Origin: a virus
Taxonomy: Duplodnaviria; Heunggongvirae; Uroviricota; Caudoviricetes
IMG/VR virus record: IMGVR_UViG_2579778674_000010
Strand: one strand, 5' to 3'
Length of the DNA stretch: 40,652 bases
The notes under the pieces are model-generated. The model was not told where the DNA came from. It did no database searches and worked only from the letters and a program-made list of their open reading frames with translations. Both the position numbers and the translations under genes were made by a program. Below are positions 1,206 through 38,919 of the stretch, one piece after another (position 1 is the stretch's first letter; each line of letters opens with the position of its first letter).

Positions 1206-1543
1206 CAGATCACCACTTCGTCAAACTGACACGAAAAATCGGTATAGGTGATATGTTCTGTCGCTGACCACGTTCGACACACCACTCTGATTTTTCTGTT
1301 AATACCCGGCGGGCGCCAAAAAAAAGATTTATAGCCTTCATGCCGGGCTAAAAATTTTTCAAATGAATCACGTTCATTCGCCTCAACTTTGAAATCACAG
1401 GTGAAAACGCGCAGAGAATGATTAAGTCCATTTGGACTTCGTTGCTCATAACCATCGCCAAATCTTACAGTTTTTATCGATGGTTTATTTTCTGTTTTCA
1501 TTCCATCCTCTGGTAACCAGTGAAATTCTTCCGTATTAGCCAC
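1205..1543 (-). CDS. Minor tail protein M (lambda gpM-like)
   Basis: 112-aa ORF with an RFGDGYEQR motif and overall pattern matching lambda gpM. Position between tape measure and L. Overlaps the tape-measure stop. Confidence 0.8.
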
Positions 1544-4500
1544 TTAACATTCCCCCATCACGTCGCATATTTAACAGATTGCCCTGCACCCGCTGATCAA
1601 CCATCCCCATAAGTGCTTTTATTGCCTGAGGGCCAATCTCTCCATTCTGGCCGTCATTTTGAATAGTGATTTGGTATACAGGGGCATAGGTAATATCTCC
1701 GCCTCCATTACCACTTTTACTATTAATAGCTCTGACACCAAGAGAACCATCGGAAGTTCGTGTTAATGGCATAATGGCTTCCGGACCAGCCTCACCAAAA
1801 ACACCAGCCCCTCTTGCAAAAGCAAAAAATTGCGGGGAATCATAAATACCGTTCGAATACGTGTTCAATGACGGAGACTCATAAACACCGCCCTTTGCAT
1901 TCGGAATAAATTTACTAATAGCACTCCCGATAGTTCCTAAAATCCCCCCAGAAGAACTGTTACTAATGCTGTCGAAAATCCCAGTAATTGAAGCCTTTAA
2001 TGCTATTCGACTAAGATCCGAAATCACGGAAGTAGCGAAAGAACGAAAATTTGCCTTGCCTGTCGTGACAAAATCACCCAGCGCATCGGTCATTCCATCA
2101 AACATCTGAGTCGTGGTTGATTTTATCTGCTCACTGATATCCTTAGTGTCATCCAGCCAGTTATTGAATCCCTGGGAGGCACCACTAACCCAGTCTCCTG
2201 CCTGAATATCGAGCTGCTCGTTTTTCTGTCTGACAATTTCTTTTTCTCGTTCCAGAGCATCATTCAGAGCCTGCATTTTCTCCTGAAAAACATGATTTGA
2301 CATCCCACGGGATTTATCTGCATAGTCACGTTCAAGTTGCAGACGCTGATTGTTATATTCACGTTCAATCCGCAGTAATTCCTGCTGGCGTTGCTGATTT
2401 TTATCGCCAACCCCATAACCAGCAATCTGAATATCATACCCCTGTTGACGATTATCAATCGAAGCCTGCAATGAATCACGCCATGCAGCTATTTCGGCGG
2501 ATTCCTTGATTAGCCTGTTATTTTTTTCAATCGCAACATTTTTCTCCATCAACGCGGTTATTTCTTCCCGGTGTAAGAGAAGCGATTTCTGATCCTGGGT
2601 TAATTTCGATGACGGTCGTGACTCCAGGTCGGCAATCTGCTGACGCCACTTAACCAGTTCCTGTTCAGAGGAACTTAATTTAACGGTTAATTCAGTTTGT
2701 GAACTTAGTAACGCATTCTGTTGATTCAGATGATCAATCATTCGTTGGGCAGCATCATCCGAATAACCTTTCGCCTTTGGTTGCTTTGGATCTTTATAAC
2801 GCTCATTTATTTGAGCGATAAAATTATTATATTCTTCCTTTGAATACTGACTCTTTAGCTTTTCCAGTTTTGCAAGTTCACTAGCTCTCTGCTGCTCCCG
2901 GGTCTGATATTGTTTTGAAAAGGCATCTGCTCTCTGTCTGAGTTCAATTCCTTCCTGTTGTCGCTTGTTGTAATCGTTTATTGATGAATTTAGGACGTCC
3001 TGAGCAATTTTTTCTGCTTGAAGTACGCCCAATTGCTGCTTTAATCGTGCCAGCCTTTTATTTTGAGCTCCGCCATCTCCAATGCCACCTAACCCAAAAA
3101 CTCCGGGTCGGGTATTTTTTTCTATTTCATCAATTTGACGGAGAACATCTGAGATTTTTTGATCAAGGGAGGCCTCACGGCCAATGTCCAGCATGGAATC
3201 CCATGCCCATTTTGCGGAGTCTGCGACAGCTTTCCATGCAGTCTCAAGATAACCAAGATTTTCTTTAATCTGGTTGGTGCGCTGGATCATTGAGGATGAG
3301 TATGCTTCTGTCGCAATGCGGGCGGCCTCCTGCTGGTTCCCTTCATCCTGTAGCGCCTTAATCTGGTTATAAGTCGCAATTGTCAGAAAATGGTACTGAT
3401 CATTAAGTTTTGATATGGCACTGACAGGATCCTTTGCAATTTCATTGAAGTCATTAACCAGTTGTTCGGTTGATATTCCTGTTACTTCGCTCGTTTTTAC
3501 TATCGCTGTCGTCACTTGCTCCAGCGAACTGCTCGCTACCTTTCCCGAACGCACAAGCTGGTTTAATACTGCCGCCGCAGCGCCAGTTGTCGAATCAGCC
3601 GCATTCCCGGCACGTTGAGCTATATCGGCCAATTGCCCGCTGGTTGTCCCCAACTGATTTCCGGTAAGAATAAGAGATTTATTAAATTCGTCCTGCTCCT
3701 GAGAGCCTTTATAGTAAGCCAGTCCTAAGACCCCAACGGCTGCTGCGGCCAGGGTAAAAGGATTAATTAATCCCAGCACATAAGAACCTACACCTTTGAT
3801 CGCCGGGCCAATCCCACCGAACATATCTTTTAGCTGGCCGCCCTGCTGCATTAACACCATAAATGGCGACTGACCAGTGGACAACCCAACAACAATATCC
3901 GTCATTTGTGCAGGCAACATGCGCATAGCAAAAGCCGTTTGTTTTGCCGACATTCCGGTTTTGCTTAATTGTGATTGAGTAACCTCAAGCTCACTCCGCA
4001 TAGCACGAAGTTTTCCAGAAAGCTCCTCATACATTTCAGGAGAAAGCATCCCCTTAGCTTTTGCTTCATTGAGCTGTTTCTGTTGTTCTACCAGACGATT
4101 AAAAGCAGTTCCGACAGGATCAAGTTGAGCAATCAGACGTTGCAAAGCAACAACCTGTTCATCATGCGCTTTTGCTGCTTCTCGCTCTGCCTGAGCCTCT
4201 CCGGTAAGCTCTCGCCGTGTTTCCTGTATTTTTCGGCTATAATTCTCAAACTGAGAACCATTTATTTTCCCGGATGCAAACGCAGCATTAAGTTCATCAT
4301 GCTGTTGTTCAAGATTTCTTAGCGCCGCAGCCAGAGGGTCGATCTTGTCCAGCATTCTTTGAAAGGCCTGAGCCTGCGCTTCCTGCTGGGCGGCAGCAAG
4401 TTTTCCGGCCTTCTCGGCTTCTCTCTGCGCTTGCGCAACCCCGCTCAATTCCTCTGTGGTTTCATTAAGTTTACGGACAAGAAATTCATATTCTTCTTTA

Positions 4501-4769
4501 TCAATAAGCCCTTTATCGAAAAATTTCTTTAATTCAGAATAGCGTCGACCGACAGTATCAATTGCGGCACCAACTGGATCAATAGCTGCTTTTAATTTTG
4601 CGAGCGCGTTCTTCTCATCTTCTGTTGCCTTAGTCACTTTCCCTGCGCTATTTGCAGCAGTTTCCCCAGCCTGCGTCATTTTGACTAATGAGGAGGTCAG
4701 ATTGTCAGCATTATTTTTCGCTCCAGTGCTATCAATAATTATTGCGAGACGCGAGGTTTGCTCTGCCAT
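1536..4769 (-). CDS. Tail tape measure protein
   Basis: 1077-aa ORF, alanine/glutamine-rich coiled-coil N-terminal half with repeated modules, central hydrophobic/glycine-rich segment. Lies between the tail chaperone genes and M. AGGAG ribosome-binding site before the ATG. Confidence 0.85.
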
Positions 4770-4783
4770 TTATTAAAACTCCT

Positions 4784-4814
4784 GACAACAAAAAACCCAC
4801 CGCGAAGTGGGTTT
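4784..4814 (-). terminator. Intrinsic-terminator-like hairpin between the chaperone T region and tape measure
   Basis: Plus-strand aaacccac-cgcgaa-gtgggttt (8-bp stem) preceded by an A-run, so the minus-strand RNA has the hairpin followed by UUUUGUUGU. Confidence 0.5.
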
Positions 4815-4934
4815 CAGGCGACATAATAGTAGATATAGCGATTACGAGGCCACGCAATGCTTTTCTCCAGGAGCATCATCGATTTAATTAAAGACACCAT
4901 CACATCTCTGTAACAGAGTGTACGTAATTAACAA

Positions 4935-5256
4935 CTACACACACTGCTCCTGAAAATACTGGTCATCCAGTGCAAAGATCACTGCTTCAAATTCATCGCG
5001 CTCAATCAATACCGGATGAGTGGCTAAATATTCATTTATCTCTGTCAGAGATAAAGGCAAAGGCACCCCAGCCATTCCAGCATAACGTCGGGCACGGGAT
5101 ATTACCGAATAGGCGTACAACAACTCCTTAAGCACCGGGTCTATTTCTGGTTCCGGTATCGGTGGCAACCTGAGTTTTTCTCGCTTCCATCTTGCCTTTT
5201 CCCCCCTTTCTCCCCCGAACTCCGATAACCACCGCTGGGCAGCTATGGCTTTTTTA
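4935..5256 (-). CDS. Tail assembly chaperone T-region, expressed as a G-T fusion by -1 frameshift
   Basis: The 77-aa track ORF frame stays open upstream (without an ATG) to the slippery heptamer A-AAA-AAG (minus strand, plus 5249..5255) at the end of the G ORF. Reading in -1 from there gives ...KKAIAAQRWLSEFGGERGEKARWKREKLRLPPIPEPEIDPV... Confidence 0.6.
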
Positions 5257-5704
5257 TCGTATCCTGCTTCTGCTGCTCTTTACCCTGGGCGATGCTGGCT
5301 GCTTCTGCAAGGATCTGCCAGTACAACTCTGGATTCTGCTTAAGCAGCGCGATCCCTCGTTCTGCCGTATATTCCAGTGCAACCTCAACACCATTAACCA
5401 GTTCACCAACCCCTTTCCAGTCTTTCAGCAGATAACGAGCGGCATTATCAATGAGTAAATCATCAACAGAATCCACCTCGGAAACCTTTGAAATATCAAA
5501 CTCCTTCGTTCCGACGTGCAAACTGGCATCCATTTTCTCAATGTGGCGACGGATTAATGCATTACGGGAGCGATACTGATCGTTATCGCTGCTTGCCACC
5601 AACAGTTTTAACCCGTCTACAGGTTTTAAGTCCTTCATTGGCGTAAACCAGCGTTCTCCACCAATGATAATTTTCTGATTAAGAATAAACATCCATAACC
5701 TCAT
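5243..5704 (-). CDS. Tail assembly chaperone G-like
   Basis: 153-aa acidic ORF immediately downstream of the major tail gene, ending ...DTIKKP-stop with the slippery site in its last codons. An alternative start at the second Met (5692) is possible. Confidence 0.7.
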   Translation of the reverse strand: MRLWMFILNQKIIIGGERWFTPMKDLKPVDGLKLLVASSDNDQYRSRNALIRRHIEKMDASLHVGTKEFDISKVSEVDSVDDLLIDNAARYLLKDWKGVGELVNGVEVALEYTAERGIALLKQNPELYWQILAEAASIAQGKEQQKQDTIKKP

Positions 5705-5752
5705 TCAATGCGTCCCCCTGTAGGGCAGTACCACAGGAGGAATAACGGAAAA

Positions 5753-6715
5753 TCAACTAATCGCCTCAGCACTGGCTTTTGCGATCACGGCAGCCGGGGA
5801 ATTTTTTTTTCTGGTTATCGTAGGTGCTTCATCTGCTGCGGTAATGCTCAATTGAACCTGGATAATGTCGCTATTACCCCCATCAGGCCATTCACCTGAC
5901 ACCTGAACCTTCGGGAAACTGAAAGTGTATGCCCCCTCTCCATTCGAAAGCGTGAAGCTGAACGGAACTGTTTCTCCAGTCAGTGTTTTACTCCAGATTT
6001 CCCACGCGGCTTTAGACCATGAAAGCGTCACCGTACCGGACGGTGTAAAAGTAGTCGGAATATTTGCTCCTGCATAAGGCGAGCCAGTCCCGATACAACG
6101 CTGTGTCTGGAGTTTGTTATCGAACTGAATATCAAAACTGTCGATACAAAAACCGTTACCTCCGGCAACACCATTCAGGCTTACTGCTGAAACCTCCTTA
6201 AACGAATAACGTAGCTTTCCTGCACTACCCACAGGTTCGCCTTTGATAAAATTCGTATCATCGGCCTTTGATTCCCAGTCCAGTCCGGCAAAGGTTACGG
6301 TCGCTGTAATATCGCCGTCGTTAGGGATCTGCATTTTCCATGAGCCAACCTGCGCTCCTCTGACGACAGAGGCAATTCCGACATCGGACGCATAGGTCGC
6401 CAGAGAAAATGTTATTCGCTCATTCCCCATTGTCAGAGAATCGCCTGACCATTCCGCGCCGAAACAGGATGCAAGAAAATCATCATGTTGACCCCAGCGA
6501 AATTTGGTACCAACATCACCGCCGACATCCACAGTGCCAGGCGTCGCCCCCTGAGCCATCCGGGAGCCACCAATCTCATTATTTTCGCCTTTATTCTGGG
6601 TGGGTTTTACTCCCCAGCTTGTGCGTTTTAATAAACTCCAGTCACCACTTGCTGGCGTAGTGCCTGCAACCGTCTCCCGGATAAATGCCGAGATAACCTT
6701 TGCACCTGAACTCAC
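5753..6715 (-). CDS. Major tail (tube) protein
   Basis: 320-aa ORF, Gly/Thr/Ser-rich beta-type composition, located just upstream of the chaperone and tape-measure genes. Assigned by position and composition, not by recalled sequence identity. Confidence 0.65.
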   Translation of the reverse strand: MSSGAKVISAFIRETVAGTTPASGDWSLLKRTSWGVKPTQNKGENNEIGGSRMAQGATPGTVDVGGDVGTKFRWGQHDDFLASCFGAEWSGDSLTMGNERITFSLATYASDVGIASVVRGAQVGSWKMQIPNDGDITATVTFAGLDWESKADDTNFIKGEPVGSAGKLRYSFKEVSAVSLNGVAGGNGFCIDSFDIQFDNKLQTQRCIGTGSPYAGANIPTTFTPSGTVTLSWSKAAWEIWSKTLTGETVPFSFTLSNGEGAYTFSFPKVQVSGEWPDGGNSDIIQVQLSITAADEAPTITRKKNSPAAVIAKASAEAIS

Positions 6716-6741
6716 AGGAGCCTCCTATGTCATTAATTGCG

Positions 6742-7134
6742 CTAGAGCGCGCGATATGGAATTTGAAGATTAAGCTGGAACCAGCCATTCTTTTCGCCAA
6801 CGGCTATTGAGGAAACAGCCTGGTAACTGAGACGATCGTCATCCTGAAACTCAAACAGTTCCCGCAATTTATCGGCTGTCTCAGTAATGAGTTTTGAACC
6901 AGAACCTGCGGGGACAAATAACTGAATAATGATTATCCCCGTGCGATAAACAATCGGCCCCGCGCCAATTTCATTAACTCCAGCCTGCCCGGGAATATTA
7001 CTTAACCGCGCCCAGATTAACTTACCGGAAGGATCGAACGTTGGCGCGTTCGGATACAATACGTCTTTTCCATCAATAATCGTCTGTGCCGTCATTCTGG
7101 AAATAACCGTATTTCTGATTTCAGTAAACGTCAT
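6742..7134 (-). CDS. Small tail component (tail terminator or completion protein), start taken at MTFTEIR
   Basis: The track ORF 6742..7167 begins inside IS1; the first Met outside the element is at 7134 (MTFTEIRNTVISRM...). Position immediately upstream of the major tail gene. Confidence 0.5.
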   Translation of the reverse strand: MTFTEIRNTVISRMTAQTIIDGKDVLYPNAPTFDPSGKLIWARLSNIPGQAGVNEIGAGPIVYRTGIIIIQLFVPAGSGSKLITETADKLRELFEFQDDDRLSYQAVSSIAVGEKNGWFQLNLQIPYRAL

Positions 7135-7208
7135 TTGTAAGCCTGTAAAACACGGTAATGCTGCCAACTTACTGATTTAGTGTATGATGGTGATTTTAAG
7201 GTGCTTGC

Positions 7209-7484
7209 GTGGCTTCCATTTCCATCAGATGTCCTTCCTGCTCCGCTACTGAAGGCGTGGTGCGTAACGGCAAAAGCACTGCCGGACATCAGCGCTATCT
7301 CTGCTCTCACTGCCGTAAAACATGGCAACTGCAGTTCACTTACACCGCTTCTCAACCCGGTACGCACCAGAAAATCATTGATATGGCCATGAATGGCGTC
7401 GGATGTCGCGCCAGTGCACGCATTATGGGCGTTGGCCTCAACACGGTTTTACGTCACTTAAAAAACTCAGGCCGCAGTCGGTAA
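7209..7484 (+). CDS. insA: IS1 InsA
   Basis: 91-aa [61 protein letters not shown]..., recognised as IS1 InsA (zinc finger plus HTH). Confidence 0.95.
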
Positions 7485-7906
7485 CCTCGCGCATACAACC
7501 GGGCAGTGATGTGATTGTCTGCGCTGAAATGGACGAACAGTGGGGCTACGTCGGTGCTAAATCACGTCAGCGCTGGCTGTTTTACGCGTATGACAGGATA
7601 CGGAGGACGGTTGTGGCGCACGTCTTCGGTGAACGCACTCTGGCCACACTGGAGTGTCTTCTGAGCCTGCTGTCGGCCTTTGAGGTCGTGGTATGGATGA
7701 CGGATGGCTGGCCGCTGTATGAATCACGCCTGAAGGGAAAGCTGCACGTTATCAGCAAGCGTTACACTCAGCGCATTGAGCGACATAATCTGAATCTGAG
7801 ACAACATCTGGCAAGGCTGGGACGGAAGTCACTGTCGTTCTCAAAATCGGTGGAGCTGCATGACAAGGTCATCGGGCATTATCTGAACATAAAACACTAT
7901 CAGTAA
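7403..7906 (+). CDS. insB: IS1 InsB reading frame (made as InsAB' transposase by -1 frameshift)
   Basis: 167-aa ORF ...[41 protein letters not shown]... recognised as InsB. A6C slippery motif (aaaaaac) at 7460..7466 within the insA/insB overlap. Confidence 0.9.
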
Positions 7907-7921
7907 GTTGGAGTCATTACC

Positions 7922-7981
7922 TACATCTTCCTCAATCATCCCGGCAAATATTGACGGTTCTATATCCCATGCCTTTGCCAT
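7922..7981 (-). pseudogene. 5-prime fragment (20 codons) of a phage head-tail joining gene, cut by IS1
   Basis: ATG at 7981..7979 directly follows the TAA stop of the upstream gene (TAAATG packing). MAKAWDIEPSIFAGMIEEDV then reads straight into the IS1 right end at a codon boundary. No in-frame continuation on the far side of IS1. Confidence 0.5.
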
Positions 7982-8365
7982 TTACGCTCTCCTTAACTGG
8001 ATAGAGTAAACTGATGCGGAAGGATCTACACTTGCTGTAATTACCTCGTATCGTTGTAACTGCCTTGATACAGGATCATAAATCTCAATAATATGGTCGA
8101 CAGCTGGTTTATCCGTAACCTCGCATACCAGAGCGGTTAATTTAAGGTCACCATGCAAAATATTAATCCCATCAATTCTGCCCAGCTTATAACGTGTCAA
8201 CACGCCTCGCCCGGTATAGATTGCGGTGGATTCGCCGCCAGTTTCCGTCACAGGATCCCAGTGCCGGTGCGTAACGTAAGAACCAGAAAAATCACTCACG
8301 GCGTCCGCTAAATCCTCATCAAAAGCAGCGGCAACCTCTGACTGAATCTCTTCACGAAGCCCCAT
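7982..8365 (-). CDS. Head-tail joining protein (head closure/adaptor-like)
   Basis: 127-aa ORF between the connector-like gene and the IS1-disrupted gene; start overlaps the upstream stop. Assigned by position. Confidence 0.5.
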   Translation of the reverse strand: MGLREEIQSEVAAAFDEDLADAVSDFSGSYVTHRHWDPVTETGGESTAIYTGRGVLTRYKLGRIDGINILHGDLKLTALVCEVTDKPAVDHIIEIYDPVSRQLQRYEVITASVDPSASVYSIQLRRA

Positions 8366-8760
8366 TATCCCCCCCTCACAACCCTGACTTGTGAGCGACT
8401 AAGTCCGTACGGTTTCAGCAGTGCTATCGCAAGCTGTAAATCGGGTTCAAGCAATGCAGTGCTGTTTGCTGGCAACTCAGAAAATGATTTCGATACACTG
8501 ACCCCGTCAGCCGACACGGCTTTACTGATAACAACGCCAGAATCATTTTTCTGCTGAAACAACTTACCGAATGAGGCAATTCTGGCTGCATATGCTCCCG
8601 CAAGTTTTACCTCTTCCGGAATACGGGATGGGTTAATTTTCAGGTTGAAGCCATTAAGCCAGGCATTAGCCATTAAAACAGCTTTATTTTTAGCGTTCTC
8701 ACTCGTCCAGGCGTTCCCAAACGCATTATCAACGTCATCACAGGTCACGTAAGTGATCAT
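8365..8760 (-). CDS. Head-tail connector protein (gp6-like)
   Basis: 131-aa ORF downstream of the capsid gene, in the position and size range of gp6-like connector proteins. Confidence 0.5.
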   Translation of the reverse strand: MITYVTCDDVDNAFGNAWTSENAKNKAVLMANAWLNGFNLKINPSRIPEEVKLAGAYAARIASFGKLFQQKNDSGVVISKAVSADGVSVSKSFSELPANSTALLEPDLQLAIALLKPYGLSRSQVRVVRGG

Positions 8761-8763
8761 GTG

Positions 8764-8940
8764 TTACTCCTGAGTTTTCCAGCCCATAGCCTTCCAGTTG
8801 TCAACTTCATCAGGATGAACATTAGCGATAGTTGGTGCGCCGGGAAACATCTGATAATCGGTCACCATAACCACTAACTCAATTTGCGTTTTTTGTGCGG
8901 CTTCACGCTGTGCTCTTTGCTCTTTAGTTAATCCGGCCAT
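8764..8940 (-). CDS. Small hypothetical protein (58 aa) between capsid and connector genes
   Basis: Manual translation MAGLTKEQRAQREAAQKTQIELVVMVTDYQMFPGAPTIANVHPDEVDNWKAMGWKTQE; absent from the ORF track because it is under 60 aa. G-rich stretch before the ATG; tightly packed with the next gene. Confidence 0.3.
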   Translation of the reverse strand: MAGLTKEQRAQREAAQKTQIELVVMVTDYQMFPGAPTIANVHPDEVDNWKAMGWKTQE

Positions 8941-8951
8941 ATGCCCCCCAT

Positions 8952-8972
8952 TAAAAATGGGGCCGAAGCCCC
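8952..8972 (-). terminator. Hairpin with short U-run just downstream of the capsid gene
   Basis: Plus ggggc-cgaa-gcccc at 8959..8972; the minus-strand RNA has a GGGGC-UUCG-GCCCC tetraloop hairpin followed by AUUUUUAAU. Confidence 0.4.
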
Positions 8973-8982
8973 GTTTGAATGT

Positions 8983-10122
8983 TTAACCAAGAATCAGACA
9001 ACCATGTGCCGGCTTCACTGATGAAACACCCCATGCCAGTCCAACTTCATAGCGCACCTGGCGATACTGACGATACAGTGCAATCTGGAACGTAATCCCT
9101 GAAATCGGGTCCGTAACATTCATTACATCATCAGCATTATCGCCACCTTCCGGCATTGCCGGAGTACGGGATGCCAGCAGAAACGCGTTGCGATCAAACG
9201 CCATATTTGCCGTAAAGGCCCCAACAACTGTGATGGCAGTATCATCGGCCAGATCCTGACGCAGTCCGGGCGCTGCAAGAGTAATCAGATTGCTGGTCGC
9301 TGCTGCCACAACATACTGATTCGGATCACCAGCGAACGTAACAATCTGACCTGCAGAAATACTCCCCGAACCAGTATCAATGGAAATAAGAACATCGCCT
9401 TCTTTTTTCTCTCCATTCACGAGATAACCAGTTGCAGCAACCTTTGGCGCTCGTTTCACACCTGCCGAACTGTGAATATTGAATCCCTCCAGACGCCCCA
9501 ACACGCCCTCACGCAGTAGCTGTTCAGTGCCGGATTCATTCACTTTAAACAATACAGACTGTTTTCCGCGCAAATTAGCAATGGCAGTGGAGCCAAGCAC
9601 CATCTGCAGATCGGTTGTCGGTGCGCCGTTATCCTCCAGAACCTGACGAGCCAGAGCAGCATCAGAAAGATCATCTTTAACACCAAACGGCGTTGTCCCT
9701 GCGGTTCCCACGGCGCGGGAAGCACCGAAATACAACGCACCAAGATCAGCCTCAACCTCGTTTGCAAGGGCGCGAAAAGCCTGCTTGAACTGATCAGCCA
9801 GAATGGTGTTGTAAGTCCCTGAAGGGCCAAGAGCCAGTTGTTCTTCACCATTCCATTTAACCGGTGCCATTTTGGATTTAGTAATTTTTACATCAACAGT
9901 GCCAATATTTTGATCACCGGTATTCGGAGCTGACGGCCCCGGTACGATATCTTCGGTTTTCGCCTCAGGCGCAACTGGCGCGGTTACCGTCTGATCTTTT
10001 GCTGCGGCGTCAGCTTTTGCGTTTTTTGCTACCGCAGGGATAAAACCTACCTGCTCACGGGATACAACATCCAGGGCGGTATAAATAGTCGGGATCAACC
10101 CGGTCAGGGTATTTCCAGCCAT
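8983..10122 (-). CDS. Major capsid protein
   Basis: 379-aa ORF taking the start at MAGNTLTGL (ATG 10122..10120), which has an AAGGA ribosome-binding site 7 nt upstream; the track start at 10215 lacks one. Follows the scaffold gene and is followed by a hairpin. Assigned by position and size. Confidence 0.7.
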   Translation of the reverse strand: MAGNTLTGLIPTIYTALDVVSREQVGFIPAVAKNAKADAAAKDQTVTAPVAPEAKTEDIVPGPSAPNTGDQNIGTVDVKITKSKMAPVKWNGEEQLALGPSGTYNTILADQFKQAFRALANEVEADLGALYFGASRAVGTAGTTPFGVKDDLSDAALARQVLEDNGAPTTDLQMVLGSTAIANLRGKQSVLFKVNESGTEQLLREGVLGRLEGFNIHSSAGVKRAPKVAATGYLVNGEKKEGDVLISIDTGSGSISAGQIVTFAGDPNQYVVAAATSNLITLAAPGLRQDLADDTAITVVGAFTANMAFDRNAFLLASRTPAMPEGGDNADDVMNVTDPISGITFQIALYRQYRQVRYEVGLAWGVSSVKPAHGCLILG

Positions 10123-10220
10123 AATTAAATATTCCTTAAAAATTTGCGTAATTGTGAATAGATGGAGTAATGAGCTATCCAGCCCTGACACCAGCTCCCA
10201 TCCGGAAGCTGACAAATGTG

Positions 10221-10985
10221 TTAATCAACGATTGTGATACCGTCTTTCAATGCGTTTTGCTTACCTGCAACATCCAGTGCATCAAAAGCAGAGCGTTTCA
10301 TCGTTTTCTGACCAATATCATGCTGTGTCGGACGGGAGCCGCCGCCATTGTTGCCACTGGCTTTCAGGATGTAGTCTTTCTGAGGGTAATTTTCGACAAG
10401 GAACTCCAGCGCCTCATCAAACTGCGCCAGTTCGCCAGGCTTCGCGCGGGAATAAATTTTGTTGCCGGAAGCGTCATAAGCAACGATCCTCCCTTCTTCC
10501 ACTTTGAATGCCTGCCCGAAGCGGGCTTGTAATAAATCTGCCGGGATCGCAATTTTATCGGCAATATATTTTGAACCCGCAAAACTACCGCCAATCATAG
10601 AATCGTAAAGCTGCTTCTCCAGCATCTGAGAGCGTTGCTTTTCTTCATCTAATTGCTGCTGAAAATTTTTCGTAATTTCTGCCTTAACCTGGTCAACCTG
10701 TCCCGCATCGAGCAGCTTTTTCTGGTCGATTTTTGACAGCATTTCCAGTGCCTCGATCGCCTTCTTCGGGTCTTCGATAGCGGCAAACTTAGCCAGTTTT
10801 TCCTCTGCAGCTTCTTTAGCCAGGCGATGATTTTTTGCCTCGCCATTAAGCTCTGTAATTTTTTTTGTCGCCAGCGGTGCATCGAAGCCAATTTCTTTAC
10901 CATCGTCGTGCACATAAACTGGCAGGCCAGCAGTATCAATTTCTGCGTATTGTTTTCCGTTAATCTCGACCGTTTTCAGTTTCAT
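10221..10985 (-). CDS. Scaffolding protein (probable)
   Basis: Start taken at MKLKTVEINGKQY. Charged coiled-coil-like middle (EEKLAKFAAIEDPKKAIEALEMLSKIDQKKL...). Position between the head morphogenesis and capsid genes. Confidence 0.5.
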   Translation of the reverse strand: MKLKTVEINGKQYAEIDTAGLPVYVHDDGKEIGFDAPLATKKITELNGEAKNHRLAKEAAEEKLAKFAAIEDPKKAIEALEMLSKIDQKKLLDAGQVDQVKAEITKNFQQQLDEEKQRSQMLEKQLYDSMIGGSFAGSKYIADKIAIPADLLQARFGQAFKVEEGRIVAYDASGNKIYSRAKPGELAQFDEALEFLVENYPQKDYILKASGNNGGGSRPTQHDIGQKTMKRSAFDALDVAGKQNALKDGITIVD

Positions 10986-11042
10986 ATTAGTACCTGGTTT
11001 AAGTCTTCCGACAGTTACGCTGCTCACCATCCGGATCGCAGC

Positions 11043-11070
11043 AATAAAAAAGGCCACCCGAAGGTAGCCT
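11043..11070 (-). terminator. Intrinsic-terminator-like hairpin between head morphogenesis and scaffold genes
   Basis: Minus-strand RNA AGGCUACC-UUCG-GGUGGCCU (8-bp stem, UUCG tetraloop) followed by UUUUUAUU. Confidence 0.55.
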
Positions 11071-11089
11071 GTTGTAATAAATGATTTAT

Positions 11090-12205
11090 TTAAATCCCTG
11101 CTTTTCTGAATACCTGTGCATCACGCTCACGGAGCTGCTTCAGCGTCAGCCATTCGCCTTTATCGGTGTAAAATTCATCTGGCGACATACCACCATCCCG
11201 AATCAGCTTTGCTCGGGTTTCCCCCACAATCTGTTTTTGTCTGGTGTAAGGCTGACGCAAAAACCATTCCCTGTAGGTTGTATCTCCGGCCACCACGCCA
11301 TCCATGCTGGCCCGCTCAGCCGGGGAAATATCGCGAACATCAATACCCAGTTCCTTCGCTGATTTCAGAATGAACGTTTCCGTTGAGCGGCAGCAGAAAT
11401 GAATTTTTCCCGGCCCCTGCAAATAAGGCACGCTGTGACCTACAGGTTTATTATTCAGCGTATATTTGAGGCGATCCCTGATTCGACATTGTGGCGTAGT
11501 ACGATTATCAAGCGTTGATAACCATTGCTTACCCTTAATCAAATCATTATTCGCGCTGGCAAAACTCTCACGGGCAGTAGCAGCAAGATGTCCAACCGCT
11601 GTTTTTGCAATGCTGGCCGCATTAGCCCGGCTCATCTGCAATGCACCATCCTGAAATCCCTTACTGACATGTCCCCGAATTTTTCTTGCGATCTGCTCAT
11701 TGGTATCCCCCAGCAAAAAACCCTGACGCACTGTATTTGTTATGCGTCTGAGCCGATCCGCCTCAAGATCTGAGGCCCACTCACTGAGCAGTCGTCCCTG
11801 GAATGGTCGCGCCATTGCAGCGGCATAAAGTGCATCAGGAGAGATACCAACCAGAGGGTGAACATCAGCAACAAAATCAGGTAGCATAGAATCAAACAGA
11901 CTTAACTGATAACCAGCCTCATAAATTGCCAGCTCGTTCAGCTCTCCGGAGAGACTGGTAAACATGCTGTTAATAGCAGTGCGGTTAACCTTTCTGACGC
12001 TCGCCAGAAGTGACTCCAGGCGCTTAACGGTAAAATTACCTGGATCGAGGCTGTCCAGTGCTATCAGCAGGCGAGCAGTAAGTTCCGCATCGCTGTCATT
12101 CAGTATTTTCACCATTCTGGCAGCCACGCCAGTGCTATAGCGGGATATCCAGACTGCATGAGCAATTGATTCATCACGCAGCCGTTCATTCACGGTTTGC
12201 ATCAT
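11090..12205 (-). CDS. Head morphogenesis protein (SPP1 gp7 / Mu F-like)
   Basis: 371-aa ORF immediately downstream of the portal gene and overlapping it, the usual position of F-like minor head proteins; contains a TPQCRIRDRL-type segment. Confidence 0.75.
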   Translation of the reverse strand: MMQTVNERLRDESIAHAVWISRYSTGVAARMVKILNDSDAELTARLLIALDSLDPGNFTVKRLESLLASVRKVNRTAINSMFTSLSGELNELAIYEAGYQLSLFDSMLPDFVADVHPLVGISPDALYAAAMARPFQGRLLSEWASDLEADRLRRITNTVRQGFLLGDTNEQIARKIRGHVSKGFQDGALQMSRANAASIAKTAVGHLAATARESFASANNDLIKGKQWLSTLDNRTTPQCRIRDRLKYTLNNKPVGHSVPYLQGPGKIHFCCRSTETFILKSAKELGIDVRDISPAERASMDGVVAGDTTYREWFLRQPYTRQKQIVGETRAKLIRDGGMSPDEFYTDKGEWLTLKQLRERDAQVFRKAGI

Positions 12206-14905: not shown

Positions 14906-15971
14906 TCCTTACTCTGGCATCAACCACATTAATATTGATCGCCACAGGCTGGGGATGTTCATTATCTTCCACCGTTTCGATCTCTTTGCGCAGCTTCTGG
15001 TTTTCCATTCTGCGCCGTTCAATTTCCAGTTCCTGTAGCCGTTTATCTGCACATAAAGCCCCGCCAGCAGAAAACAAACGCAACAATTCACGCCGGGCGG
15101 CAGCCTTATCCTCCAGCAGGATCTCAACGCCGAATTTTCCGAATTTTGCCCCTGCATATAATTGCCGCGCATCCCCATCAAGCAGAGTGGTATCAGCCAT
15201 ATAAAGCTGTCCCGTTCCCTCACCGCAGCACTTCGGGCAGTCCGGATTGGGTATGGCGTTATCAACAAAGCCGAGGCCTCCATATTCCGGTTCGGGTTTG
15301 CCATCTCTGGAAGCCTGCGCCGCTGCCTTGTCGAATTCTGCTATATCGCGCCACTGGTAGAGATGATTCTCGCCCCAGCAATAACGGCAGTTAACACGGC
15401 GAAATTGTGCAAGCTGATTGGGGTCGGCCAGGACAATAGCCATCAACTGACTCACTAGTAAATCCAGGTCTGCGGTATAGCGTTTCTGGTACTGATTGCG
15501 GAAGTAGCTGATAGCGCGAAAAACCCTGGCATTTCTAAGCATACGACTGGCGTTGCTGTTAGCTGTCGCACCTTGCCCCTCATAACCGGCTAGTCGGTAC
15601 GCCTCTGTCGGCTTTTTACCCTGAGCAACAAGCATCGCAAACTTAGCCTGCTGGTCAGAAATGCCGAATTCATCGGGACAGAACGAAAATTCCTCCGCGT
15701 CGCCCTCATTCAGGCCCGCATCGAATACTGGCTTTTTTTCCTGAGATTTTTCGTTCCGCTTTTGTGCAGTCTGCGCAGATTTTTTCTGCGCACTTTTTTG
15801 CGCAGTTTTGCACATTTCTGTCTGCGCATTTTTCGGAGTTTTTTTGATGTAACGACGGGCTGTTGCGTAATTCAGTCCCCTTGCTTCACACCATGCCACC
15901 GGAGATATACCGGAGCGGGTGTATTCAGCAATATACTCCTGCTGCAACGCCCCCCAGTCCGGTCTGCTCAT
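14877..15971 (-). CDS. Terminase small subunit (probable)
   Basis: 364-aa ORF with an N-terminal HTH-like segment, a lysine/glutamine-rich low-complexity linker (KTAQKSAQKKSAQTAQKR), and a 3-prime end overlapping the terminase large subunit start. Confidence 0.6.
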   Translation of the reverse strand: MSRPDWGALQQEYIAEYTRSGISPVAWCEARGLNYATARRYIKKTPKNAQTEMCKTAQKSAQKKSAQTAQKRNEKSQEKKPVFDAGLNEGDAEEFSFCPDEFGISDQQAKFAMLVAQGKKPTEAYRLAGYEGQGATANSNASRMLRNARVFRAISYFRNQYQKRYTADLDLLVSQLMAIVLADPNQLAQFRRVNCRYCWGENHLYQWRDIAEFDKAAAQASRDGKPEPEYGGLGFVDNAIPNPDCPKCCGEGTGQLYMADTTLLDGDARQLYAGAKFGKFGVEILLEDKAAARRELLRLFSAGGALCADKRLQELEIERRRMENQKLRKEIETVEDNEHPQPVAININVVDARVRSDEDDLSDA

Positions 15972-15974
15972 CAG

Positions 15975-16226
15975 TTAGTCCTGATTTTTATCCACCCTGA
16001 GTAGTTCGCGCAGAGCAAAGGCATCCCCTTTTCTGGCAAGCTTAAACAATGCCGCTCGTAACTCGGCTTCACCTTTCGCTCTGCCCTTACGGATGGCCGC
16101 ATAAAAATCTGTCATTGCTTCCCGATTTTCTTTCAGTCGGTTCAGATCAACATCCAGAACGTCAGCGATTTGTTGTGCAGTCATCCGGCACGCTGCCAGA
16201 GACTCGACTTTCGAATACGGAATCAT
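15975..16226 (-). CDS. Small hypothetical protein, possibly HTH-containing
   Basis: 83-aa ORF directly upstream of the terminase small subunit. Start uncertain; it overlaps the end of the preceding ORF. Confidence 0.35.
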   Translation of the reverse strand: MIPYSKVESLAACRMTAQQIADVLDVDLNRLKENREAMTDFYAAIRKGRAKGEAELRAALFKLARKGDAFALRELLRVDKNQD

Positions 16227-17094
16227 TTGTCACCCCCATTGATATGCAGGGTGTCTTCTTCCTGTATTTTTCGTGAAGGATTTTTACTGCAGCGTTGTTC
16301 CAGGTGACCTGATGGTGAATGCGTTTATGGCTGGCACCCATCAGTGAGATTTTTACGCACGACGGCGCATACATGACGGAGTAAAAACTTTTAACGTAGG
16401 TTCCGGAATCCAGATACAGCTCGGTCATTCCGCCGCTGTTTTTCTGCGTCTGTTTCTGCCCTAACTGGACAGCACCGATCGTCATAAACAATTCACCACA
16501 GCGACCGAGATTCGTGTACGTATTCACATCCTCGTTAATGCGCCCCATGAATGAGAACGGTCGATCAACCGAACAGATAAAGCTGTTCATTGCCTTGCGT
16601 TTCACCCACGAAGCATGGCCGCCATTGTCACCAAGAAAATCCCCGCCCTGCGACATAGCGATGGAAAGAGCAGGTATTGATTCGTAGTACGCCAGCATTT
16701 CAGAAAGGATCGCATCCAGTTTCCTTATCGGAAAATAGGCCTGGTCATAGTTGCGATCCACCCGAAACTGGAACTCGTGATAATCATCATCGAGCTGAAT
16801 GAAGTATTTACACCCGACCAGTTTTGCCAGGTCGAAACAGGCATTACGGGCGTAAAAAATTGAGCGGCGGTCACAGAAATTATCGGCTTCGTCAAAACGA
16901 CTGGCGATATCGGCTTTGGAAAACACCAGCACCTGTTCACCAAATTCAGCCATGTACTGATTCCGTGTCTTATCTTCATCATCAACAACGATAAAAATTT
17001 TCCCGGTATAGCCAGCACGACGCAACGTCCGGTAAGTCAGAACTTTGTCCGGTCGCCCGTGAGTCAGAATAAAGGCGCAAAAATCATCACGCAT
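16162..17094 (-). CDS. Hypothetical phage protein, possibly nucleotide-sugar-transferase-like
   Basis: Start taken at MRDDFCAF (ATG 17094), giving an 8-nt overlap with the ParB-like gene. Contains FIVVDDEDK and IQLDDDYHEF acidic motifs reminiscent of DxD glycosyltransferases. Function not established. Confidence 0.45.
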   Translation of the reverse strand: MRDDFCAFILTHGRPDKVLTYRTLRRAGYTGKIFIVVDDEDKTRNQYMAEFGEQVLVFSKADIASRFDEADNFCDRRSIFYARNACFDLAKLVGCKYFIQLDDDYHEFQFRVDRNYDQAYFPIRKLDAILSEMLAYYESIPALSIAMSQGGDFLGDNGGHASWVKRKAMNSFICSVDRPFSFMGRINEDVNTYTNLGRCGELFMTIGAVQLGQKQTQKNSGGMTELYLDSGTYVKSFYSVMYAPSCVKISLMGASHKRIHHQVTWNNAAVKILHEKYRKKTPCISMGVTNDSVFESRVSGSVPDDCTTNR

Positions 17095-17878
17095 ATTCCT
17101 CCTCCTCACCACCATGCATGATCTCCACCATGCGCTGCGTCATCCGGACAAATCCATTTTCAATAGCCTGCTGATAATCAATGATCACCAGCGCCGACTC
17201 CTCGAAAAAACACTGAATTTCAGAGGGGGCGTGAGCGTAATAGTCCGCAATTCTGCTGAAATTAAACACCGTGTGACGTTCTGCCGCACACAGGAGGAAT
17301 TCCTCAATATCAGGCTCAAGGGACGCCGAACGTATCCGGCTGATCAGCTCCTGAGTTTTCGTATCGTCGTACAGTTCACTGATATCCGGTTTACCGCCCG
17401 ACGGCTCATAAACAGGCGTATCAATTTTCGTCGTATACGGCTCCTCCTCATTTCCTGTACCGGGCAAAACATCCGTCAACAGTTCATCAATTTCTGTCGG
17501 GATGAAGCCTGTCAGGGAGACATCAAAATCAGCATTGATTAGGTCCGACAGCTCCATCCGCAACAGATCTTCATCCCAGCCAGCATTCATCGGCAGGCGA
17601 TTATCTGCCAGGCGGTACGCCTTTTTCTGCTCATCCGTCAGGCCAGACAGAACAATGACCGGAACAGAATCCATTTTGAGCATTTCAGCCGCCATAACAC
17701 GACCGTGACCCGCAATAATTTCGCCCTTTTCGTCAATCAGCACCGGATTAGTCCAGCCGAATTGCTTAATACTTTCTACCAGTTGTGCCACCTGCTCAGG
17801 GCTGTGCGTCCTGGCGTTGTGCGCATACGGTGACAATTCTTGTAATGGGCGATAGACTATCTTTAATTTCTCGCTCAT
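17087..17878 (-). CDS. ParB-like nuclease domain protein
   Basis: 263-aa ORF with the ParB N-terminal domain signature (...NPVLIDEKGEIIAGHGRVMAA...). Lies upstream of the packaging genes. Probably the counterpart of the K-12 Rac gene ynaK. Confidence 0.75.
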   Translation of the reverse strand: MSEKLKIVYRPLQELSPYAHNARTHSPEQVAQLVESIKQFGWTNPVLIDEKGEIIAGHGRVMAAEMLKMDSVPVIVLSGLTDEQKKAYRLADNRLPMNAGWDEDLLRMELSDLINADFDVSLTGFIPTEIDELLTDVLPGTGNEEEPYTTKIDTPVYEPSGGKPDISELYDDTKTQELISRIRSASLEPDIEEFLLCAAERHTVFNFSRIADYYAHAPSEIQCFFEESALVIIDYQQAIENGFVRMTQRMVEIMHGGEEEEYA

Positions 17879-17892
17879 ACAGCCTTGCTTTA

Positions 17893-17929
17893 TGAATAAA
17901 ACGCACCCCAGCAGCCAGTGCTACTGGGG
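17893..17929 (-). terminator. Hairpin plus U-rich tract downstream of trkG
   Basis: Plus ccccag-(12 nt)-ctgggg at 17906..17929; minus-strand RNA has the hairpin followed by UGCGUUUUAUU. The loop is long, so strength is uncertain. Confidence 0.35.
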
Positions 17930-20991: not shown

Positions 20992-21016
20992 AAAAAGCCC
21001 CGGGACATGCCGGGGC
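20992..21016 (-). terminator. Intrinsic-terminator-like hairpin upstream of the holin
   Basis: Plus gccccgg-gacatg-ccggggc at 20997..21016 preceded by aaaaa; minus-strand RNA has the 7-bp GC-rich hairpin followed by UUUUUCGUUGUU. Confidence 0.5.
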
Positions 21017-21110
21017 CAGATGGAGTGCCAGATTAAGCTTCTGGCGGTATATACTCGTGTTTGATATCGTTAAATCGCCAAAAGTAACAATTCAAACAAA
21101 GAGGATTTTT

Positions 21111-21915: not shown

Positions 21916-21947
21916 CCAGAAACAACAAAACCCGCTCAATGGCGGGT
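21916..21947 (-). terminator. tR-prime-like intrinsic terminator downstream of the Q-like gene
   Basis: Plus aacccgc-tcaatg-gcgggtt at 21928..21947; minus-strand RNA has the hairpin followed by UUGUUGUUUCU, about 85 nt after the Q-like stop. Confidence 0.5.
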
Positions 21948-22031
21948 TCTGGTAAAGTTCATGCGCTTGGTTCGCCTCGCGATACAGCTTTGCGAAGCAT
22001 ACCGGAATTGAAGCAGTTTATGCGTAAAAAA

Positions 22032-22574
22032 TCAAGCTATTTTTTGAGCAAATGATTCTCGCATGGGAATATATAGGGCATACTCAGCAACAGCCAACCA
22101 ATTAGCAATTCGCTTTTCGCATGTGCTAAAACACCACTCAGGATGTGCATCATTTAGCAATTCAGCCATTTTGCGCTTAGTCATCCCCCGTCCTTCATAC
22201 CGTTGCCGGAGGACACTAATCAATCCAGGATGCTCTGCCAGCACCTCACTTATGACTCTATCAATACATAACGCCTCTGCATCAGTACAATGCGCCAGCC
22301 AGGTCTTTTGCTTGCCGTTGATCATCTCTCGCAAAAACGCTTCCAGCTCAGGTTTCTCTATTCCCGCTTTTTTCATCCTGCGCAGGGCTTCATTGACGGC
22401 TGTTTTCGTCAATTTTTTGGATGCCAGCAACTGGTTAAACATATTTCCCGTCTTACCGCCGCCAATATACGACCAGCGCCCCCACATGCGCAGTTTTCCC
22501 TGAATCCAGACACTTTCCAGCGTGGTGAGACGAAGGTGTTCCCCGCTTTTGCCTGTATTTGTTGGGTAAATCAT
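22032..22574 (-). CDS. Late-gene antiterminator Q-like protein (probable)
   Basis: Start taken at MIYPTNTGK (ATG overlaps the stop of the upstream gene as ATGA). Contains an LRMWGRW segment; last gene before the terminator and lysis cassette. Family assignment is from position and partial motif recall. Confidence 0.55.
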   Translation of the reverse strand: MIYPTNTGKSGEHLRLTTLESVWIQGKLRMWGRWSYIGGGKTGNMFNQLLASKKLTKTAVNEALRRMKKAGIEKPELEAFLREMINGKQKTWLAHCTDAEALCIDRVISEVLAEHPGLISVLRQRYEGRGMTKRKMAELLNDAHPEWCFSTCEKRIANWLAVAEYALYIPMRESFAQKIA

Positions 22575-22861
22575 AAATAACCTTCCTTTCTCCAGATTTC
22601 TTGTGTGCGAAAAACACCTTCTGCATGCATCAGGCGTAATTCTTCTTTGGTGTAATCGCTGGTTTTTACCCGCCCGTCGATTAAATCGTGGCATGAGCTA
22701 CAGGCAATCGCTGCCTGCATATCGTGTGGTTTTGTCGCTGTTCCGCACGTCCCCGCCAGCCTGTAATGCGCCAGCACAGAGGTTTCGGGATTGTGATTGC
22801 AGTAGCCAGGGATTCTGATTTGGCACATCTGGCCTTTAGCCGCTTTACGTAAATCCACCAT
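22571..22861 (-). CDS. YbcO-like (DUF1364) nin-region protein, putative Zn-binding nuclease
   Basis: 96-aa ORF MVDLRKAAKGQMCQIRIPGYCNHNPETSVLAHYRL...IACSSCHDLIDGR, resembling the DLP12 YbcO family; four Cys. Confidence 0.6.
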   Translation of the reverse strand: MVDLRKAAKGQMCQIRIPGYCNHNPETSVLAHYRLAGTCGTATKPHDMQAAIACSSCHDLIDGRVKTSDYTKEELRLMHAEGVFRTQEIWRKEGYL

Positions 22862-33957: not shown

Positions 33958-34398
33958 ATCAATAACTCTCAACTGTAAGGGTATTGAAATGTTAACACAA
34001 GCTCTCGCTGTAGGGGTATAGCCGAGACCACCGAAGCCCGGAGGTGGTGAAATAAAACCGGGCACAACACGAAGGCGCATTTCCGATATCCATAAAGAGT
34101 CGGTCTTGTCTGTTAAATTTAAATGGTGGGAGTGCGCCTCCGGTTGTAAATAACGACATTGCTGTGTGTAGTCCTGGCGGCATCAGTTTTTTTCTTGAAG
34201 TTCGGCTGATGTCCGCCCTTTTTAAAGTGAATTTTGTGATGCGGTGAATGCGGCTAAGCGCACGTGGCACAGTTAAAAGTCATGTTAGTCCTTATTGGTT
34301 TGGGTGGGAAAGCCGACTGTAATTGTTAACTGGTTGCAGTCACCTGGAGGCACCAGACACCGCATCAACAAAGTTCATTTGTAAAAATGGAGATAATT

Positions 34399-38712: not shown

Positions 38713-38919
38713 ATGACAAAAACTTTGAGATATGACGATGTTAAACCATGTCCGTTTTGTGGTTGTCCATCAGTAACGGTGAAAGACATTTCAGGATATT
38801 ACCGGGCAAAATGCAACGGATGCGAATCCCGAACTGGCTATGGTGGAAGTGAAAAAGAAGCGCTCGAAAGATGGAATAAACGAACCACTGAAAATATTAA
38901 TGGAGGCGTTCATGTATAA
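38713..38919 (+). CDS. ralR: RalR (Lar) restriction-alleviation protein
   Basis: Start taken at MTKTLRYDDVKPCPFCGCPSVTVKDISGYYRAKCNGCESRTGYGGSEKEALERWNKR... (Cys4 zinc-ribbon-like); position downstream of recT as in Rac. Confidence 0.75.
   Translation: MTKTLRYDDVKPCPFCGCPSVTVKDISGYYRAKCNGCESRTGYGGSEKEALERWNKRTTENINGGVHV

Follow-up and report, generated by a model that had tools for sequence, protein, structure and literature searches.

Terminator-type hairpins at module boundaries in the late operon of a Rac-like prophage, with a GGAU-loop hairpin array in its scaffold and capsid leaders

The IMG/VR virus record IMGVR_UViG_2579778674_000010, a stretch of 40,652 nucleotides (nt) that is called the window in the following, is a full-length Rac-like lambdoid prophage of Escherichia coli, and its late operon contains three hairpins with adjoining U-tracts: T1 before the scaffold gene, T2 after the major capsid gene and T3 before the tape measure gene (Table 1). 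Comparison with relatives of the capsid and the scaffold, drawn from IMG/VR, GTDB genomes and GenBank phages, showed at the level of sequence that all three elements are maintained by selection, which is manifest as compensatory changes in T1, a near-invariant hairpin at T2 and turnover of unrelated stems at T3. We propose, with a probability of roughly 0.55, that T1–T3 are genuine Rho-independent-terminator-type elements of a single Q-antiterminated late operon, which stop unmodified polymerase, are read through under Q and double as RNA-end hairpins. The best supported part of this proposal, given the anatomy and position of the elements and the biology of Q, is that T1, T3 and a fourth terminator behind the trkG cargo gene represent true intrinsic terminators, placed where modules and cargo genes adjoin. 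The analysis also revealed an array of hairpins with GGAU loops in the scaffold and capsid leaders, which is apparently undescribed in the literature and in Rfam; this array is the part that looks new and the more valuable by-product.

Conserved hairpins with U-tracts at module boundaries

A preliminary description of the window had listed three terminator-like structures on the coding strand at gene boundaries, and all three are found in the sequence at the listed positions. T1, T2 and T3 lie on the minus (coding) strand, each in an intergenic gap, and RNAfold confirmed each hairpin as both the minimum free energy (MFE) and the centroid structure of segments of about 50 nt, with energies of -13.8, -14.1 (inside a larger fold) and -16.1 kcal/mol, respectively. 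The stems comprise 8 base pairs (bp) in T1, 5 bp, all of them G-C, in T2 and 8–10 bp in T3, and the loops have 4 nt. All three thus combine the features by which intrinsic terminators are recognized, namely a G+C-rich stem, a following U run and an intergenic site, and the intrinsic-terminator character ascribed to them earlier is upheld by this anatomy, by their position at block boundaries and by their compensatory conservation. Comparison with Rfam 15 gave no match in positions 4700–11100 (whole-window search, E <= 1), and only chance-level matches, far under the gathering threshold, in positions 10100–11100 at E <= 10.

The simplest alternative, that the elements are chance palindromes without function, has one observation in its favor: the window shows no overall enrichment of a loose terminator consensus (25 sites versus 19.6 +/- 3.7 in shuffled sequences). 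The placement of the strong hairpins argues otherwise. On the late strand, defined for this ranking as positions 507–20893, intergenic DNA makes up 953 of 20387 nt (4.7%). There are 17 terminator-like hits on this strand; the four with a free energy (dG) of -9.6 or lower, which are the trkG terminator, T1, T3 and T2, are all intergenic, and the other 13 (dG >= -6.7) all lie within genes. Under uniform placement, the probability that all four top hairpins would be intergenic is about 5e-6. The trkG terminator, which was absent from the preliminary list, is of the same class as T1–T3; it is the strongest coding-strand terminator of the late region and is positioned between the lysis and packaging genes. 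Together with these placement statistics, covariation and positional conservation over many genera refute the chance explanation, to which we assign a vanishingly small probability.

T1 has a stem of eight pairs, one of them G.U, which is closed by a C(UUCG)G loop (11070..11051, AGGCTACC-TTCG-GGTGGCCT; as RNA, AGGCUACC-UUCG-GGUGGCCU followed by UUUUUUAUU), and a tail, TTTTTTATT, that runs to 11043. It is located 19 nt past the stop of the MuF-like gene (11090) and 58 nt ahead of the scaffold ATG (10985). An alignment of 40 sequences revealed an invariant T-run and a helix that is 95% paired, with double changes at five of the eight pairs; none of 500 shuffles was as good, and slid controls were at most 55% paired. 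Among 157 unique leaders of DUF6651 scaffold genes, 142 contain a hairpin (dG <= -7, median -14) that abuts a run of at least five T residues. The T1-type elements of these leaders comprise 30 distinct stems and are distributed over phages and prophages of enteric genera, Pseudomonas, Acinetobacter, Mannheimia, Cupriavidus and Janthinobacterium. Judged by these alignments, T1 is the best conserved of the three elements. It always lies directly 5' of the GGAU hairpin array, to which it is joined by a fixed junction, TTTTTTAT(G/T), and forms the first element of a conserved structured scaffold leader.

T2 (stem 8972..8959, GGGGC-TTCG-GCCCC, with the tail ATTTTT extending to 8952) begins 10 nt past the capsid stop (8983) and ends 12 nt ahead of the next ATG (8940). 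A hairpin with a dG of -7 or lower is present at this site in 93 of 101 unique relatives, compared with 15 of 101 control segments inside the gene. Throughout the Enterobacterales the stem GGGGC/GCCCC is nearly invariant and its flanks vary, and compensated stems occur in Photorhabdus (GGGGA/UCCCC and GGGGG/CCCCC). Distant relatives contain longer, unrelated G+C stems, often without a T-run; hairpins without a U-run were found at the T2 site in relatives from Cupriavidus, Janthinobacterium, Xanthobacter and Desulfuromonadales. Pairing of the 3' arm of T2 (GCCCC) with the Shine–Dalgarno (SD) sequence of the downstream 58-amino-acid (aa) gene (GGGGGG) was considered as a conserved switch and rejected, since most relatives have GGAGGG and lack this pairing. 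In the variant of this window (8940–8972, minus strand), the alternative pairing is used in the MFE structure of a 56-nt segment.

T3 (stem 4815..4792, AACCCACT-TCGC-GGTGGGTT, or alternatively CCCAC-TTCGCG-GTGGG, with a T-run to 4784) reads as RNA AACCCACU-UCGC-GGUGGGUU, with the U-run continuous with the stem. It lies within a 165-nt gap between the stop of the chaperone-region open reading frame (ORF; 4935) and the tape measure ATG (4769), and its end is separated by 2 nt from the tape measure SD sequence (CAGGAG). The element is 100% identical in the Rac remnant of E. coli K-12, where it is located between ydaY and ynaA (tmpR). Every relative with an alignable tape measure N-terminus has a hairpin with a T-run directly before the SD sequence, and at least six unrelated stem sequences occupy this position among the relatives.

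Two minor observations concern the T3 region. Among near-identical E. coli prophages the hairpin is polymorphic (4792–4815 compared with loci L020, L025, L034 and L038): the loop is mostly TTCG in these prophages, the window and K-12 contain a 2-nt CG insertion, and some copies are mismatched at the stem base (GTGGGC, GGTGGT), which suggests a weaker constraint on T3 than on T1. In addition, a possible ORF of 28 codons, MVSLIKSMMLLEKSIAWPRNRYIYYYVA, is present in the spacer at 4816–4934 (minus strand), and its TGA immediately precedes the T3 hairpin; its copies are all more than 95% identical, which makes their conservation uninformative, and its ATG is replaced by ATA in some relatives.

T1–T3 are real, selected and ordinary in kind. 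For two decades, annotations of lambdoid late operons have included terminators and stem-loops, most notably behind the capsid gene, and such elements are found in the records of HK639, P22 and a Mannheimia phage. In the HK639 record, the homolog of T1 at 4901–4922 is annotated as 'terminator' (an annotation made by prediction), and the terminators of the tail region belong to a different tail module. The record of Mannheimia phage 1152AP2 contains predicted terminators before the scaffold gene, between the scaffold and capsid genes and after the capsid gene. In both phages, MuF-like or cargo genes precede the T1 counterpart, and the DUF6651 scaffold gene follows it. The late operons of phages L and P22 share with the window a single late promoter, an antiterminator of the Q family/gp23 and internal Rho-independent terminators, one of which ends the procapsid (scaffold–coat) module. 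They differ from the window, which contains a DUF6651 scaffold gene, a MuF-like gene and an extra terminator ahead of the scaffold gene; P22 has no T1-like element, and its scaffold gene begins 13 nt after the portal gene.

The similarity to P22 is closest at T2. At the same site, P22 has a post-coat stem-loop (NC_002371.2), AGGGGC-UGCG-GCCCCU UUCUUUAU, compared with GGGGC-UUCG-GCCCC AUUUUU in T2, and in both cases the SD sequence of a small ORF is immediately next. The P22 structure is annotated in the same record as 'similar in location to stem-loops in phage HK97 and phage lambda'. The capsids of the two phages are only remotely related (PF11651, E = 1e-12), and no homology was found between the 58-aa ORF after T2 and P22 orf69. 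To these annotations, the present analysis adds comparative evidence of selection on structure and U-tract at set module boundaries.

Possible roles of T1–T3 in a probably Q-antiterminated operon

The Q gene is located upstream of the three elements on the same strand, and the holin, endolysin and Rz genes follow downstream. Its product matches PF06530 with 27 bits against a cut-off of 26, and additionally matches DUF1133. Strong hairpins with T-runs are present at 21951..21926, which is tR'-like, and at 21017..20996; they are candidates for the terminator expected shortly behind the late promoter. In a consensus scan of the minus strand, the stretches from each of T1–T3 to the start codon that follows contained no sigma-70-like site, so that the downstream genes need read-through. 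The preliminary description had invoked Q-dependent read-through; read-through is a logical requirement of this arrangement, with the Q gene and the tR'-like hairpin upstream of the elements and no sigma-70-like site behind them.

T1 and T3 are situated at positions where relatives contain accessory genes. At T1, one to three additional genes separate the MuF-like gene from the terminator in phage PS-1 and in phages of Acinetobacter and Mannheimia. In HK639 (L135), a hydrophobic ORF of 38 codons, MPQIMVGLVSIALGLAAIVISSRSIYEMWRFMREQKNK, which is not annotated, is found at 4786–4902 between the head-morphogenesis gene and the homolog of T1. At T3, the cargo of relatives includes an Ail/Lom outer-membrane protein, an ORF6N-domain protein, a 103-aa CxxC protein and an unknown 232-aa protein (loci L053, L035, L082, L081, L095 and L104), and each cargo is followed by its own hairpin and T-run. 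This organization resembles that of morons, which are accessory genes inserted between late genes together with their own terminators, a concept that goes back to Hendrix and Juhala: T3, and in other phages T1, ends a slot that holds cargo in relatives, and the trkG cargo gene of the window has its own terminator. It differs from morons in that the T1 slot of the window is empty and the T3 slot consists of the 165-nt spacer only; likewise, in one relative (L072) the terminator directly follows the chaperone ORF, with no cargo.

In the mechanism that we propose, polymerase without the Q modification would stop at T1–T3. Such polymerase could originate from leaky late transcription, from the promoters of cargo genes such as trkG or from inserted elements, and the terminators would insulate two blocks of genes in the lysogen, scaffold–capsid and tape measure/tail-tip, keeping their expression strictly Q-dependent. 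During lytic growth, Q-modified polymerase would pass all three. The location of T1 and T3 exactly at the accessory-gene slots of relatives points to a role as the downstream boundary of these slots. In the read-through transcript the hairpins would persist as RNA structures, and T2, possibly also T1, may act as decay barriers, such that the scaffold–capsid segment between them would outlast its neighbors. For T2, the hairpin of which is much better conserved than the U-run, this is likely to be the main role, and T1 may also provide a fixed 5' boundary for the GGAU-capped scaffold leader. The link of T1 and T3 to cargo slots would assign a concrete role, insulation against non-antiterminated polymerase, to a feature whose function is unknown in the literature. 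The phage L paper (PMC8022706) describes terminators inside late operons as common, with unknown roles, and offers partial termination or the blocking of non-antiterminated transcription as possibilities; a revisited SPP1 genome (PMC6316719) carries the same remark for late gene clusters.

Several points weigh against this proposal. We infer the insulation in the lysogen from position. T1-type elements are also found in PS-1 and Acinetobacter phages, where late transcription may not be under Q control, and Q-dependence is thus not generalizable. T2 has a stem of only 5 bp, with an A between stem and U-run, and its U-run is degenerate in many relatives and missing from high-GC ones; it may be poor at terminating and function mainly as an RNA-stability hairpin. 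Since IS1 has inserted into the operon, T1–T3 may no longer be operating in this copy of the prophage. Finally, in the supplement of a Term-seq study (PMC7815308), the K-12 copy of T3 is without a 3' end, in a region that is essentially silent and therefore uninformative; the sole 3' end listed there is antisense, in ynaA.

Three further explanations were weighed. A serious rival, which we nonetheless regard as unlikely, holds that the elements serve RNA processing or stability, either by blocking 3' exonucleases or by protecting the 5' end that an RNase E cut in the adjacent U-rich strand (UUUUUUAU) would leave, and thereby give a longer life to the scaffold–capsid mRNA. The scaffold and capsid genes are exactly those enclosed by T1 and T2, the C(UUCG)G loops are extra-stable, and the T2 hairpin is kept without a U-run in distant relatives. 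Processing of papBA and the f1 gene VIII mRNAs, which end at one terminator, provide precedents. Such a role does not require a U-tract, however, and yet the T-run of T1 is invariant and that of T3 is always present. The RNA-stability function that the preliminary description had held in reserve suits T2 better than termination does, since its hairpin is far more conserved than its U-run; the two roles are compatible with each other. A functional contribution of T1 to the scaffold leader, with its hairpin and U-tract acting as a U-rich platform for S1 or Hfq, as a standby platform or as a fold insulator for the GGAU hairpins, would be in line with the constant position of T1 just 5' of the array and the fixed junction between them. 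We consider it improbable: the terminator shape of T1 is complete by itself, and phages of Rhizobium, Salicola and Caulobacter contain GGAU hairpins without a T-run element, which argues that the array is independent of T1.

The preliminary description had favored stoichiometry control, according to which partial terminators would set protein ratios in lytic growth through a stepwise decrease of the transcript. The terminator T-phi after gene 10 of phage T7 is a precedent for this arrangement, and T2 and T3 fit it by position, the former immediately behind the capsid gene and the latter immediately ahead of the low-copy tape measure gene. Partial termination is also among the roles offered in the phage L paper (PMC8022706). 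The argument fails, however, for the best-conserved element: T1 precedes the scaffold and capsid genes, for whose products the need is highest, and follows the low-copy terminase, portal and MuF-like genes, so that partial termination there would oppose the required ratios. Moreover, the interval between T2 and T3 contains low-copy connector genes as well as the high-copy tail tube gene, and one step cannot suit both. Q-modified polymerase is in addition largely terminator-resistant, as known for the Q proteins of lambda and phage 82, which limits attenuation in lytic growth. Stoichiometry control thus fits T2 and T3 and is contradicted by T1; as a role for the three elements, we judge it less likely than RNA stability and somewhat more likely than a leader function of T1.

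A GGAU-loop hairpin array in the scaffold and capsid leaders

Hairpins A and B are located between the U-run of T1 and the scaffold ATG, and hairpins D and E between the scaffold and capsid genes; many relatives contain a third scaffold-leader hairpin, C, which abuts the SD sequence. All of them are supported by covariation. The outer helix of A is 99.3% paired, with double changes at four of five pairs, and both of its inner pairs covary. Double changes are likewise present at four of five pairs in B, nine of ten in D and three of five in E, which is 99.4% paired. Considered jointly on a fixed-length A–B segment, aligned across both leader types, A and B are 93.6% paired, with double changes at 10 of 12 pairs; the corresponding values for D and E are 94.4% and 12 of 15, and in neither case was any of 500 shuffles as good. 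Hairpins B and C show covariation as well.

The loops of these hairpins are strongly constrained. Over the 157 leaders, GGAU was found 246 times, GGAA 55 times and GGAC 3 times, with a C-G closing pair in 290 of the 304 cases, and control tetraloop words gave at most two hits each. Successive loops are spaced by 18–26 nt, and the last one lies 15–29 nt ahead of the ATG. Clusters of at least two such hairpins are almost confined to scaffold and capsid leaders in 2.4 Mb of collected loci. In the loci compared, the array tracks DUF6651 scaffold genes across phages of alpha-, beta- and gammaproteobacteria: the hairpins accompany the DUF6651 scaffold even where the capsid is of another family (PS-1, Acinetobacter), they are also present in Caulobacter, Rhizobium and Salicola phages, and they are absent from capsid relatives whose scaffold is without the DUF6651 N-terminal part. 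In the literature we found no description of GGAU hairpins, and nothing relevant on DUF6651, operators of scaffold autoregulation or HK639 transcription.

Two phage records deserve mention in this context. In Caulobacter phage DMCA (L136; 2010–2118), the annotated scaffold start seems to be 36 codons too early, and the extra N-terminal stretch spans two leader hairpins of the form GGGC-GGAA-GCCC. Paraglaciecola virus JLT2 (L138) has a scaffold of a different family and no GGAU hairpins; its leader contains, at about 2285–2310, a palindrome, TCTCTATCAGTGATAGA, that resembles a pair of tet-operator half-sites.

A DNA palindrome that would serve as a binding site for a dimeric protein was considered and rejected, since the arms covary and the asymmetric loop is invariant and strand-specific; variable arms combined with such a fixed loop are typical of a hairpin that is recognized as RNA, not of an operator in DNA. 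We tentatively suggest, at somewhat less than even odds, that hairpins A, B, C, D and E represent an undescribed and widely conserved cis-regulatory RNA operator, in which a protein that recognizes Y-GGAW-R loops would govern how well the scaffold and capsid mRNAs are translated or how stable they are. T1 and T2 would then delimit a regulated scaffold–capsid cassette. The most plausible candidate for the binder would be the free DUF6651 scaffolding protein itself, which could mediate an assembly-coupled feedback as in P22. Wyckoff and Casjens reportedly observed in 1985 that the P22 scaffolding protein is autoregulated post-transcriptionally. By analogy, scaffold expression would be adjusted after transcription in both systems, here by means of operator-like hairpins in the leaders; the P22 scaffold belongs to another family, and its gene 8 is without such a leader.

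The closest known structures of similar appearance are the GGA hairpins recognized by CsrA/RsmA, such as the CsrB/RsmZ repeats and mRNA leaders that combine a GGA hairpin with a GGA in the SD sequence. Both are tandem hairpins with GGA in the loop, and the array has the features expected of CsrA/RsmA sites: a loop GGA and at least two sites 10–63 nt apart, one of which is at the SD sequence. The CsrB repeat, CAGGAUG, also resembles the CGGAUG of the array. The array differs in loop geometry, with a GGAU tetraloop closed by C-G instead of an A(N)GGA penta- or hexaloop, and in host range: Rhizobium phage P106B and its relatives, Caulobacter phage DMCA and prophages of Cupriavidus and Pararobbsia all contain such hairpins. 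S. meliloti and B. cepacia/cenocepacia are reported to be without chromosomal csrA (PMC7366521), which is a statement at the level of the Rhizobium and Burkholderiaceae lineages rather than of the exact host genomes. The different loop geometry and the occurrence of the motif in such lineages make a phage-encoded binder likelier. CsrA as the general GGAU binder was rejected on host range; in enteric hosts, it could still be the binder. If the array is a protein-binding operator, it would constitute a new phage cis-regulatory RNA family in phages of three proteobacterial classes and open an experimental route to the question of how the synthesis of scaffold and capsid is matched to assembly.

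Gene order and further features of the prophage

Table 1. Positions of hairpins, genes and the insertion element discussed in the text.
Feature	Position	Strand	Remarks
T1 hairpin and U6 tract	11043..11070	minus	Between MuF-like minor head gene and scaffold gene
T2 hairpin and A-U5	8952..8972	minus	Directly past capsid stop, just before SD sequence of 58-aa gene
T3 hairpin and U-run	4784..4815	minus	Stem of 8-10 bp
Fourth strong terminator, after trkG cargo gene	17906..17929	minus	10-bp stem, z = -3.25
Leader hairpin A	11019..11042	minus	GCUGC/GCAGC outer stem, 3x3 internal loop, CC-GGAU-GG cap
Leader hairpin B	11001..11014	minus	GUC-GGAA-GAC; in relatives GGUC-GGAU-GACC
Capsid-leader hairpin D	10189..10214	minus	10-11 bp stem, C-GGAU-G cap
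Capsid-leader hairpin E	10172..10185	minus	GGGCU-GGAU-AGCUC
Scaffold gene	10221..10985	minus	DUF6651; phrog_206 head scaffolding protein
Major capsid gene	8983..10122	minus	P22-coat-like, PF11651
Conserved 58-aa gene	8764..8940	minus	phrog_1514, function unknown; SD sequence adjoins T2
Tail assembly chaperone region	4935..5704	minus	YdaY, phrog_313, 5243-5704; second ORF 4935-5168, weak Phage_TAC_18
Tape measure gene	1536..4769	minus	
Q-family antiterminator gene	22032..22694	minus	PF06530 and DUF1133
IS1 insertion	7154..7919	plus	Between T2 and T3

The late genes are all encoded on the minus strand. Their order begins with the Q-family antiterminator (PF06530), holin, endolysin, Rz, trkG cargo, ParB-like and TAGT glycosyltransferase genes, continues with TerS, TerL, portal (DUF4055), MuF-like, scaffold (DUF6651/phrog_206) and P22-coat-like capsid genes, and ends with the 58-aa ORF, connector genes, tail terminator, tail tube, chaperones and tape measure. 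The likely starts of the capsid and scaffold genes are 10122 and 10985, as in the PGAP models of identical prophages. A GTG at 11057 was rejected as the scaffold start; this codon falls within the T1 stem. A sequence search of the scaffold against the PDB gave chance-level matches only.

Positions 4500–5594 match the K-12 Rac remnant (ydaY, ynaA/tmpR, ynaK) at 100% identity, and the same structural module is present in about 700 complete E. coli genomes and in induced phages such as vB_EcoS-666R9, a type without the IS1. In the window, IS1, with its transposase on the plus strand, takes the place of 296 bp of phage DNA, and the tail-completion/Neck1 gene has thereby been destroyed; this prophage copy, with its late operon interrupted by IS1, is probably defective.

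Two Rfam matches at 38918–39096 and 34163–34218, RalA with 218 bits (above threshold) and a DicF-like RNA with 39 bits (below threshold), fit a Rac-type prophage. Just upstream of the small terminase gene, positions 16162–17878 (minus strand) encode a ParB_N-domain protein, which is the full-length form of K-12 YnaK, and a TET-associated glycosyltransferase (PF20691); the two are possibly parts of a DNA-modification module. A strong terminator-like hairpin is found antisense to the small terminase gene, within its bounds, at 15761–15792 (plus strand), TGCGCAGA-TTTTT-TCTGCGCA followed by CTTTTTT, with a dG of -12.9.

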